NCBI RefSeq assembly: GCF_018336915.1
Contig: NZ_CP064923.1
Location: 1,710,001 to 1,742,000 of the forward strand
DNA length: 32,000 bases
Reading direction: 5' to 3'
Source of the DNA: Acaryochloris marina S15
GTDB taxonomy: Bacteria; Cyanobacteriota; Cyanobacteriia; Thermosynechococcales; Thermosynechococcaceae
Below are positions 26,280-29,200 of this stretch, in pieces. The notes under the pieces were generated by a model that saw nothing but the letters and a program-made list of their open reading frames with translations, had not been told where the DNA came from and did no database searches. Position 1 is the stretch's first letter. Each line of letters opens with the position of its first letter. The position numbers and the translations under genes were made by a program.

Positions 26280-29200
26280 TTATTCTAAATCCCACACCAA
26301 CTGCTGACAGACTTTACAGGCTTCGCGGGCGATATCGTCTGGGGGAGCTGTAAAAATGGGATGGTGGTGGAGGCGGTTACAGCATAACGACAACCAGGCA
26401 TGCCAATTACCATGCCACAGTCTGACAGTGTGGTCATCACTTCCACTAACAATGGTCTGTCCATCGGGACTAAAGGCTACGGAACTGACAGATTTTCCAT
26501 GTCCTAGGAAGGGCTCTGCGATGGGGTTGCCCTGGAGGTCCCATAGTCTGACGGTGTGGTCATCACTGCCACTGACAATGGTCTGTCCATCAGGACTAAA
26601 GGCTACGGAACTGACAGATTTTCCATGTCCTAGGAAGGGCTCTGCGATGAGGTTGCCCTGGAGGTCCCATAGTCTGACGGTGTGGTCATGACTGCCACTG
26701 ACGATAGTCTGTCCATCGGGGCTAAAGGCTACGGAACTGATCGCATCCCCATGTCCTAGGAAGGGCTCTGTGATGAGGTTGCCCTGGAGGTCCCAGAGTC
26801 TGATAGTTTTGTCCTTACTGCCACTGACAATGCACTGTCCATCAGGGCTAAAGGCCGCGGAACTGACAAAATCTTCATGCCCCTGGAAGGGCTCTGCGAT
26901 GAGGTTGCCCCGGAGGTCCCATAGTCTGACGGTTTTGTCATCACTGCCACTGACGATGCACTGTCCATCGGGGCTAAAGGCCACTGACCTGACATGATGA
27001 CTATGTCCCTGGAAGGGCTCTGCGATGGGGTTACCCTGGAGGTCCCATAGTCTGACGGTTTGGTCACGACTGCCCCTGACGATGCGCTTTCCATCGGGAC
27101 TAAAGGCCACTGACCAGACAGCAGAGCCCCCCTGGAGCTCTACGATGGGATTGCCCTGGAGGTCCCACAGCCTGACTCTTGTGTTAGGACTGCCACTGAC
27201 AATGGTCTGTCCATCGGGGCTAAAAGCCACGGAACTTACAGATTCCCCATGTCCTAGGAAGGGCTTTGCGATGGGGTTGTCCTGGAGGTCCCACAGTCTG
27301 ATAGTTTTGTCCTTACTGCCACTGACGATGTGCTGTCCATCGGGGCTAAAGGCCACGGACCGGACAGATTCCCCATGCCCCTGGAAGGGCTCTGCGATGA
27401 GGTTGCCCCGGAGGTCCCAGAGTCTGATGGTTTTGTCCTTACTGCCACTGACAATGCATTGTCCATCAGGGCTAAAGGCCGCGGAACTGACAAAATCTTC
27501 ATGCCCCTGGAAGGGCTCTGCGATGAGGTTGCCCCGGAGGTCCCAGAGTCTGATGGTTTTGTCATGACTGCCACTGACGATGTGCTGTCCATCGGGGCTA
27601 AAAGCCACGGACCGGACAAAACCTTCATGTCCTAGAAAGGGCTCTGCGATGAGGTTGCCCCGGAGGTCCCAGAGTCTGATGGTTTTGTCATGACTGCCAC
27701 TGACAATGCACTGTCCATCAGGGCTAAAAGCCACGGGACTGACAGATTCCCCATGCCCCTGGAAGGGCTCTGCGATGAGGTTGCCCCGGAGGTCCCATAG
27801 TCTGACGGTTTTGTCATCACTGCCACTGACGATGTGCTGTCCATCGGGGCTAAAGGCCACGGAACTGACAAAACCTTCATGCCCCTGGAAGGGCTCTGCG
27901 ATGAGGTTGCCCCGGAGGTCCCATAGTCTGACGGTTTTGTCATGACTGCCACTGACGATGCGCTGTCCATCGGGGCTAAAGGCCACGGAACTGACAAAAC
28001 CTTCATGCCCCTGGAAGGGCTCTGTGATGAGGTTGCCCCGGAGATCCCAGAGTCTGATGGTTTTGTCCTTACTGCTACTGACAATGCACTGTCCATCAGG
28101 GCTAAAGGCCACGGAACTGACAAAATCTTCATGCCCCTGGAAATAACCACATTCACGAATTTGGGCAATCATAGCGGTTAAAGCCTCTTGAATAGGTGTC
28201 AACACTTTGCCTTGCAATTTGTCATGGCTAGTCCCTACTGCTCGAATGGCTCGGGCTGCTGTGGTCGGGATGGGACGAGCTGTAATCAAATTTCTAGTCT
28301 GCATCGCCTCTTCCCGTAGCTTGGCTTCCGTCAACGCCCGCTCTAAAAAAGCCACCTGTTGTTGCTCTCGCTGATCGCTAGCCTGGAAATACTCACGGGT
28401 GCTTGGCCCCAGCTCGGGTTCCAGCCATGCCCACTTCTCCCTTGTCTCTGCCAGCAAGCCTCCCTGCAACAGATAGCCCTCTCCTTGGTTCTTCTGTTGC
28501 CATTCCTCTGCTGCATCCAGCACTCGTTGCAGTAAACGGCGTTGATCGCGGTTGACTTGCCGCCAAGCCACAAATTGTTCCCACCCAGTCATGAGTGACT
28601 CATGGGCTAAATCTACCCAATCGATTCCAGCAGCATTGTAAGTCACTAATAATCTCCCCTGCACCAGCTTTTCCAATGCCCGCAGCAATGCTTGCTGTTC
28701 AGCCTTGGTGGCTAGCCCCAAAATTTCTGTCTTCGGTTGCCGTTGTCGGGTATCCTTCTCCCCCTCACCAATTCGCACTAACTTAAAAAAAATTCGTTGT
28801 GCCCAACCTTGGTCGTCTTCCCGCAAAGAGGAAAAAATCTCTTCTGCCTGCTGATTGAGTGCCCCCATTACGCCCCCTAACTCTTGGTAGGCTGCAAAGG
28901 TCAATGTGCGTCCTTGTCGTCGCTGCCATAACTGTTCCAATGCAAACTCCAGCAACGGCAAAATATTCTGCTCCTGTTGTACTTTTTCCAATAGGATAGG
29001 CAGCAACCCTGGTTCAAATTTGTACTTCGCGACTGCGGCAGGTGCTCGAATGGCTTCCTCTAACTCTGCTTTATTCATAGGCAACAGCAGCACTTGGTGG
29101 GATTGAATCACCTCTCCCAAACCCCGATAGTTCAAACAATGTTCAAAAAAGTCCGCCCGCATTGTCGTGACAACCCGTAGTCGCGAATTAGGGTGCTGGG

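Follow-up and report, generated by a model that had tools for sequence, protein, structure and literature searches.

A 14-unit WD40 array as the probable sensor of an NLR-like STAND protein in Acaryochloris marina S15

Introduction

Acaryochloris is a unicellular cyanobacterium. In a stretch of 32,000 nucleotides from Acaryochloris marina S15 (contig NZ_CP064923.1, positions 1,710,001 to 1,742,000), hereafter referred to as the window, a minus-strand gene encodes a STAND protein whose C-terminal part consists of head-to-tail WD40 units. These units are far more similar to each other than the blades of a neighbouring STAND protein. The locus raises the question of whether such an array represents a sensor whose contact surface is varied by exchange among its repeat units, as a first-pass annotation of the DNA had suggested by comparison with fungal HET-E/NWD non-self receptors, or merely a young amplified propeller. 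Based on unit comparison, profile searches and analysis of homologues, the array is proposed to be the ligand-sensing domain of an NLR-like STAND protein, kept by duplication, recombination or conversion of units, with positions on the top face of the blades varying. A probability of about 0.6 is assigned to this interpretation.

Results and discussion

Domain architecture of the NLR-like protein

Profile searches against Pfam revealed the domain order DUF4062 (TIR-like), nSTAND1, 14 WD40 units and a C-terminal cysteine-rich tail (coordinates in Table 1). An N-terminal effector or adaptor, a central STAND NTPase and a C-terminal repeat sensor are combined in one polypeptide, which represents the tripartite layout of NLR-like proteins and bears out the initial description as a STAND NTPase with WD repeats. 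For the NTPase, nSTAND1 was the best model among the 25 families listed, NACHT not being one of these 25. Both Walker motifs are intact; Walker B (LLLVVDQFEE) is located at amino acids (aa) 302-311, and its alignment columns D307-E311 are invariant.

Regarding the N-terminus, the SITELEY motif of DUF4062 is invariant across an alignment of nine relatives. A weak match to the TIR-like domain of TEP1 (11gz_A, E=0.029) spans aa 43-75 only, and the glutamate equivalent to KpSwz E97 or TEP1 E1008 could not be placed, since the match is limited to these residues. An N-terminal HET domain was not found by profile search, the region matching only DUF4062, and an NCBIfam scan returned nothing specific for the protein.

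The tail following the array (WHAWLSLCCNRLHHHPIF...ACKVCQQLVWDLE) contains four cysteines, its leading tryptophan representing the final residue of unit 14. Many nSTAND1-WD40 proteins retain it behind their final WD unit, irrespective of how many units they contain. It was predicted to be helical with low confidence by AlphaFold2 (AF2). The tail could be a metal site or a propeller-closing element.

The WD40 array and its units

Tandem Repeats Finder (TRF) identified one tandem array in the window, located at 26415-28142 (period 126, 13.8 copies, 86% matches, indels 0, score 2203). Extraction of the units with the invariant AFSPDG as anchor yielded 14 units arranged in frame on the minus strand, thirteen of 42 aa (126 bp) and one, unit 9, of 40 aa (120 bp). 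The head-to-tail arrangement and the 126-bp period are as originally described; the lengths reported at that time (twelve units of 42 aa, two of 41 aa and a truncated last one) have to be corrected, unit 14 being of full length and differing in its final four residues alone. Furthermore, the WD40 profile PF00400 detected 14 stretches in the product (E=6.4e-180), and in the predicted secondary structure of the model, four strands recur every 42 residues throughout the 14 units. The alignment to 2ymu_A covers all 14 blades (E=4.5e-176; query 2-583 on chain 7-577), and it is from this sequence match that the array is inferred to form two 7-bladed propellers.

Mean identity among the 14 units amounts to 83% at nucleotide (nt) and 76% at amino acid level, the latter exceeding the cut-off of 60% mean blade identity defined by Pereira & Lupas for highly repetitive (WRAP-type) WD40 proteins. 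In contrast, the 14 blades of the neighbouring STAND gene, used as internal control, share only 46% nt and 33% aa identity on average, so that the difference noted earlier between the two genes holds. Pairs of units differ at 3 to 46 of 126 positions and most of them at 10-30; units 2/3 and 6/11, with three mismatches each, are the closest and the only near-identical pairs. Previously counted mismatches were reproduced exactly (6/126 for the units starting at 26416 and 26542, 2/128 for those at 26794 and 27418). Calling the units near-identical in general was nevertheless too strong, given this range and the median synonymous divergence of 0.27 among units 2-13.

Unit 9 is an outlier. It lacks the histidine of the GH motif and the preceding proline, and carries K, R, R and Q at sites that are conserved in the other units.

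Open reading frames (ORFs) of 75-180 aa are also present inside 26356-28181, on the plus strand and in other frames (e.g., 27025-27567 on the plus and 27632-28168 on the minus strand). As candidate genes they were rejected, since they were judged to be stop-free frames propagated by the repeat and hence by-products.

Variable positions and their location on the blade

Unit positions are given in a register in which position 1 onward reads N-L-I-A-E-P-F-Q-G-H. The most variable positions, in descending order, are 12, 31, 25, 13, 33, 11 and 15; with the exception of position 15, which is new, these are the sites that had already been named. Fourteen positions per unit are invariant, including AFSPDG, IV and RLW, as previously observed for these motifs. 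The view that variation is confined to a few codons does not apply at DNA level: synonymous changes are scattered along the whole unit, and positions 2, 4, 8, 35 and 41 vary in at least four units, each mainly between two residues.

In order to place these positions, the secondary structure string (DSSP) of an AF2 model was used. This model was computed from a single sequence with a mean pLDDT of 64, and Foldseek TM-scores were 0.06-0.20. The global fold is unreliable on account of these values, and therefore the local strand pattern alone was considered. Strands were predicted in nearly all 14 units at positions 2-6 (d), 14-19 (a), 25-29 (b) and 35-38 (c). The top face of a blade with standard WD40 topology is built from the d-a loop and the b-c turn (PMC1805685), and top and bottom were assigned from this topology, not from coordinates. 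Because of the topology and the predicted strand pattern, positions 8, 11-13, 15, 31 and 33 lie on or next to the top face. The strongest sites of variation, 11-13, 15, 31 and 33, correspond to the d-a loop, the start of strand a and the b-c turn. For them, the initial placement on top-face loops stands; position 25 (numbered 17 at that time) and position 41, situated in the c-d loop, belong to the bottom of the blade.

The same positions vary elsewhere in the family. Internal unit identity is at least 75% in 18 of the 30 nSTAND1-WD40 homologues compared, and in these 18 proteins the positions varying within each protein are 4, 5, 8, 11, 12, 13, 15 and 31, a set obtained independently of the gene under study. 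The varying top-face positions are taken to coincide with those of 18 other cyanobacterial family members and also with those of fungal HET-D/E repeats. For the latter, variable positions 10, 11, 12, 14, 30, 32 and 39 were reported (PMC12222747), and in another numbering sites 7, 9, 25 and 27, located in the d-a loop and the b-c turn (PMC1805685). Six of the seven fungal positions are spaced like 11, 12, 13, 15, 31 and 33 here, a correspondence deduced from spacing and loop location.

Age and mosaic structure of the units

Compared with the units of the 30 homologues, 13 of the 14 units have their nearest relative within the same gene, unit 9 being the only one with its closest counterpart elsewhere, in homologue P0049. 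Ordinary blades are much older than these units, for which the median pairwise dS (units 2-13) amounts to 0.27 (pS range 0-0.45). For calibration, dS of GluRS is 0.67 to A. marina and 0.09 to the nearest sequenced strain. Since the unit value lies between these two, the array is neither brand-new, like that of WRAP, nor ancient. Very recent amplification, with essentially no synonymous differences between blades as in Npun_R6612, was not observed, and a neighbour-joining (NJ) tree resolved clear sub-clades (units 2/3/5, 6/11/4/7 and 12/13/8).

The units form a mosaic, with modest statistical support. Sawyer's permutation test on the sum of squared condensed fragments (SSCF) gave P=0.0015 for all units and P=0.02 for units 2-13, a test of the pairwise homoplasy index (PHI) type gave P=0.02-0.04, and 54-56% of the informative site pairs failed the four-gamete test, i.e., they are incompatible with one tree. 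Moreover, units 6 and 11, five units apart, share a 150-nt patch with three mismatches, a candidate conversion or unit-copy tract, whereas the neighbouring unit pairs show 19 and 22 mismatches in 126 positions. Copying or conversion has taken place recently at least twice.

Selection at the variable codons

Nonsynonymous change is clearly concentrated at the variable codons. Pooled pairwise pN/pS was 1.3-1.4 at seven codons chosen from this gene and 0.25-0.28 elsewhere, the former value being circular because the seven codons were picked from the same gene afterwards. Parsimony on the NJ tree, in which recombination inflates the counts, gave ratios of dN to global dS of 1.3-1.8 for codon sets defined a priori (P=0.003-0.04) and of 1.4-1.8 for the sets homologous to HET-E alone (P=0.003-0.02). 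Counts of nonsynonymous to synonymous changes obtained in the same manner, and inflated likewise, were 10/0 at codon 12, 9-12/0 at codon 31 and 4/0 at codon 33.

Proposed role of the array and competing explanations

In the proposed mechanism, the array would arise and persist by unit duplication, unequal recombination or short conversion, the scaffold staying uniform while contact residues are reassorted. The d-a loop with the residues opening strand a, and the b-c turn, are taken to constitute the top binding surface, and amino acid change would gather there. In analogy to Apaf-1, Avs/bNACHT and DUF4062 systems, the two propellers may bind a protein ligand on their top faces, which would free the NTPase to oligomerise. 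Oligomerisation could activate the TIR-like domain as a putative NADase consuming NAD+, and the infected or challenged cell would presumably stop growing or die. The defence role of the protein is suggested by analogy only, because no PADLOC model recognises it.

Several observations weigh against this interpretation. In the conversion test, the maximal condensed fragment was non-significant (P=0.4-0.6), and a mosaic-like pattern could also result from convergence at a few hypervariable codons. The claim of patchy gene conversion or unequal crossover made in the first-pass annotation stands in part: the mosaic tests, the patch shared by units 6 and 11 and the clustering of 13 of the 14 units within the gene support it, while the maximal-fragment test does not. 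The synonymous divergence of about 0.27 shows that any homogenisation still in progress is weak relative to that of WRAP or of the HNWD repeats in fungi. At the top seven variable codons defined from the family (5, 8, 11, 12, 13, 15, 31), pN/pS was only 0.83-0.85 versus 0.36 at the rest, so that relaxed constraint fits about as well as diversifying selection. A dN/dS above 1 at the variable codons is thus borderline, and of the excess of nonsynonymous change once expected there, the post-hoc and tree-based ratios speak in favour and the family-defined ones against. Furthermore, position 25, which is among the most variable, is the first residue of strand b beside the a-b loop and hence at the bottom. 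No PADLOC system model matches the protein, the sole hit being to HEAT-ARM_XIII via the WD40 region, in addition to sub-threshold hits. Finally, order and number of the units rest on one assembly, and a short-read assembly breaks inside unit 14.

One competing explanation is a young amplified propeller that is merely drifting, having originated in one or a few amplification bursts and evolving under purifying selection with the loops least constrained, in the absence of homogenisation or diversifying selection. The family-defined pN/pS not above 1, the substantial median synonymous divergence, the NJ sub-clades and the non-significant maximal fragment agree with such drift, and the model published for the WD40 branch is one of continuous amplification starting from single blades (PMC9218822). 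Drift is nevertheless rather unlikely in view of the patch shared by units 6 and 11, with its divergent flanks, the significance of the SSCF and PHI tests (0.0015-0.04) and the high proportion of site pairs incompatible with a single tree. It is likewise at odds with the tree-based dN exceeding global dS at codons homologous to HET-E and chosen a priori, and with the differing unit numbers of close orthologues in the family. Alternatively, the propellers could bind an endogenous partner, the STAND module serving normal physiology as a regulatory switch. Some nSTAND1 relatives carry histidine-kinase, cyclase, PP2C and receiver outputs, a large kinase-AAA-GAF-HisK protein is also encoded in the window, and the missing PADLOC match fits such a signalling or scaffold function as well. 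This is considered improbable, given that the N-terminus is DUF4062/TIR-like and the studied bacterial members of this family are NAD-depleting defence effectors, and that the gene is absent at the syntenic A. marina site, its nearest homologue being 65% identical as against 94% for GluRS. Moreover, an endogenous partner would not favour variation of contact positions in every blade.

An assembly artefact, by which the unit number and order, or the near-identity of units 6 and 11, would result from reads not spanning the repeat, is very improbable. It would be in line with the short-read Logan contig of SRR12447961 stopping inside unit 14, as is usual for arrays of this type, with the many public homologues that are truncated within their arrays and with the known failure of Illumina assemblies on such repeats in fungi (PMC12222747). 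However, the 10-30 differences between most units are enough to anchor long reads. Mis-assembly is moreover unlikely because the array is in frame throughout, comprises exactly 14 units as in 2YMU, P0049 and P0060, and is correctly joined to the conserved linker and the conserved tail.

Going beyond the sensor interpretation, the array might be shuffled actively, duplication and conversion together with selection at six top-face codons continually making new binding surfaces for an NAD+-depleting NLR. This stronger version is possible but doubtful. If true, repeat shuffling would represent an alternative to hypermutation by diversity-generating retroelements (DGR) for sensor diversification within the nSTAND1 family, and the system would be a bacterial counterpart of HET-E-type non-self recognition in fungi.

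Comparison with known systems

The feature is real. However, bacteria and fungi were already known to possess repetitive sensors with variation concentrated at contact positions, and the locus does not represent a new kind of system; the novelty for bacteria that the first-pass annotation implied is contradicted by published work on bacterial WD40 and NLR proteins. Highly repetitive prokaryotic WD40 proteins were reported to be conserved except at predicted interaction hotspots (Hu et al. 2017; PMC5587647), and the array shares the conserved scaffold and diverse hotspot sites of this class (Hu et al. 2017; Pereira & Lupas 2022). Likewise, bacterial NLRs, like fungal ones, contain WD or TPR repeats with 80-90% internal conservation and may diversify in the same manner (10.1101/2020.01.06.895854).

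The closest structural match, 2YMU, is the 14-blade double propeller (two 7-bladed propellers) of Npun_R6612 from Nostoc punctiforme, called WRAP, whose STAND/TIR context has been described and for which a role in innate immunity has been proposed (PMC6805158; PMC9218822); a link of the WRAP branch to bacterial immunity has been drawn (PMC9218822). Both proteins are cyanobacterial STAND ATPases with a C-terminal array of 14 highly similar WD40 blades, and in both cases a second STAND gene adjoins the array gene. They differ in that WRAP blades are practically identical, without synonymous differences, compared with 76% aa identity and dS of about 0.27 here. Furthermore, the TIR-like domain is fused to the repetitive protein in A. 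marina S15, whereas it is located on the partner STAND protein in WRAP.

The HNWD proteins of the fungus Podospora anserina (HET-E, HET-D, HET-R) resemble the protein in combining an effector, a STAND NTPase and internally conserved WD40 repeats, in their 42-aa units of almost the same consensus, in the mosaic nature of the units and in the location of hypervariable positions, which lie with the same spacing in the d-a loop and start of strand a and in the b-c turn. They carry NACHT and HET domains, in contrast to nSTAND1 as best match and DUF4062 here, and their repeats reach up to 100% identity, internal identity being lower in the array studied. To our knowledge, repeat-induced point mutation (RIP), a further point of difference, does not exist in bacteria. 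The analogy to HET-E/NWD receptors initially drawn consequently extends to spacing, loop locations and mosaic units; it does not extend to the NTPase and the N-terminus, and it is borderline for a dN/dS above 1 at the variable codons.

DUF4062 was described as a TIR-like NADase in antiphage defence (10.64898/2026.05.01.722283; 10.64898/2026.06.25.731849). The bacterial systems Swarozyc and Evangelion share the N-terminal DUF4062 but possess other sensor regions and no STAND-WD40 module. The complete architecture of DUF4062, STAND ATPase and WD40 mirrors that of human NWD1 and TEP1, although the human proteins TEP1, NWD1 and NWD2 contain NACHT and ordinary diverged WD40 blades. Members of the same NTPase family with a variable C-terminal sensor include nSTAND1 proteins whose C-type-lectin/FGE sensors are diversified by DGR (10.1101/2023.09.22.558884). 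In the present protein, the sensor consists of WD40 units, and variation is proposed to stem from their duplication and recombination instead of mutagenic retrohoming. The ORFs scanned against Pfam yielded neither a reverse transcriptase nor a template repeat, a search dedicated to these elements not having been made.

The locus provides one clean and intact bacterial NLR-like receptor with a repeat-built sensor, in which 14 in-frame units are fused to a TIR-like DUF4062. Because the array is of intermediate age, both the scaffold and the variable contact positions are visible. In addition, the published hypothesis of rapid unit reshuffling is directly testable, since the region is strain-variable and several close Acaryochloris strains have been sequenced.

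Homologues and variation of array size

In the protein collection, the best match to the N-terminal 684 aa is 65% identical and truncated at the first WD unit. A genome scan with a single N-terminal sequence found no close orthologue, and no entry for the exact protein exists. Caspase- or DUF4062-nSTAND1-FGE proteins, an architecture known to undergo diversification by retroelements (10.1101/2023.09.22.558884), made up many of the best hits to the NTPase of the protein. Tandem DNA arrays with a period of 120-138 bp were detected just downstream of the NTPase in about a dozen of 61 related genomic loci.

Three Nostoc/Trichormus homologues (P0077, P0105 and P0068), whose N-terminal parts are 87-93% identical, contain 7, 4 and 2 WD units, respectively, with complete tails; two of the three originate from draft or metagenome-assembled genomes, in which collapse of the array is possible. 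In another relative (ENA contig ERZ25070786, positions 7498-9251), the gene is split in two, with DUF4062 (165 aa) and nSTAND1 (416 aa) encoded separately. Upstream of the WD array, identity is 72% across the C-terminal half of that region, and only one WD unit is present, followed by the same tail. This looks like a disrupted copy with an array collapsed by recombination between the first and last units. In view of these unit numbers, array size appears to be labile in the family, with the reservation that some assemblies may be collapsed.

Feature coordinates and genomic neighbourhood

The features discussed are summarized in Table 1.

Table 1. Location of the analysed features within the window (strand and basis of assignment are given where applicable).
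Feature	Position	Strand	Basis
NLR-like STAND protein gene, 1307 aa, GTG start	26280-30203	-	ORF list, translation, Pfam
DUF4062 (TIR-like), aa 3-89	29937-30197	-	PF13271, E=1.1e-21, 77 bits vs cut-off 24.7
nSTAND1 NTPase module, aa 181-574	28482-29663	-	PF20703, E=9e-114, 381.5 bits vs cut-off 27.1
Walker A GASGSGKSS, aa 220-228	29520-29546	-	invariant columns G220-S228
Linker from NTPase module to first WD unit, aa 575-681	28161-28481	-	translation; alignable across family
WD40 array, 14 units, aa 682-1267	26403-28160	-	TRF, unit extraction, PF00400 stretches, 2YMU alignment
Unit 6 patch, candidate conversion or unit-copy tract	27396-27545	-	150 nt, 3 mismatches to unit 11 patch
Unit 11 patch, partner of unit 6 patch	26772-26921	-	same 150-nt near-identity
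Unit 9, outlier	27033-27152	-	40 aa; unit extraction, nearest-relative comparison
C-terminal tail, aa 1268-1307	26283-26402	-	CC...C..C motif; homologue sequences, AF2 secondary structure
Region without counterpart at syntenic A. marina site, holding both STAND genes	18537-32000		blastn of L063/L064/L065 ends at 18536; gene tables
Neighbouring STAND gene, NB-ARC + pentapeptide + 14 diverged WD40 blades	21207-24809	-	Pfam; internal control
Two genes between the STAND genes: 220-aa ORF; class I SAM methyltransferase	24869-25531; 25593-26216	-	profile scans
2039-aa protein: Ser/Thr kinase + AAA_16 + GAF + HisKA/HATPase + receiver	7375-13494	-	conserved at syntenic A. marina position

Positions 6879-18536 of the window are syntenic with two complete A. 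marina genomes, MBIC11017 (CP000828) and AP026075, at 87% nt identity. Synteny ends about 195 bp past the GluRS stop at 18341. At the corresponding site, CP000828 and AP026075 carry epimerase, PGM and ABC genes, whereas the window beyond 18537 encodes a PapA5-like acyltransferase, the two STAND-WD40 proteins, an orphan and a methyltransferase. GluRS encoded in the window shares 94% identity with that of A. marina and 99% with that of a Logan assembly. Absence from the syntenic site, together with the nearest homologue being 65% identical compared with 94% for GluRS, indicates that the STAND gene is accessory and either fast-evolving or mobile.

The neighbouring STAND gene encodes an N-terminal stretch of about 120 aa without a Pfam match, and its pentapeptide repeats are located just before the WD40 blades. 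Both STAND genes lie on the same strand with two small genes in between, and the gaps measure about 60 bp, which makes their co-transcription possible. A promoter and terminator scan of 19-32 kb found sites no commoner than in shuffled sequences and was uninformative in this respect. Concerning the two small genes, the 220-aa ORF had no match in Pfam, NCBIfam or PADLOC. The best PADLOC match of the methyltransferase was mad2 of the MADS system (E=1e-22), which probably reflects generic methyltransferase similarity.

Logan assemblies cover parts of the region. The independent short-read contig from SRR12447961 is 100% identical to positions 19708-26496 of the window and ends inside unit 14. A second strain, that of SRR12447963, is 99.1% identical over positions 6884-18818, where its contig ends, and the strain of SRR12447953 carries a 65%-identical DUF4062-nSTAND1 gene that is cut at the first WD unit. 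These three runs represent a ready-made strain panel.

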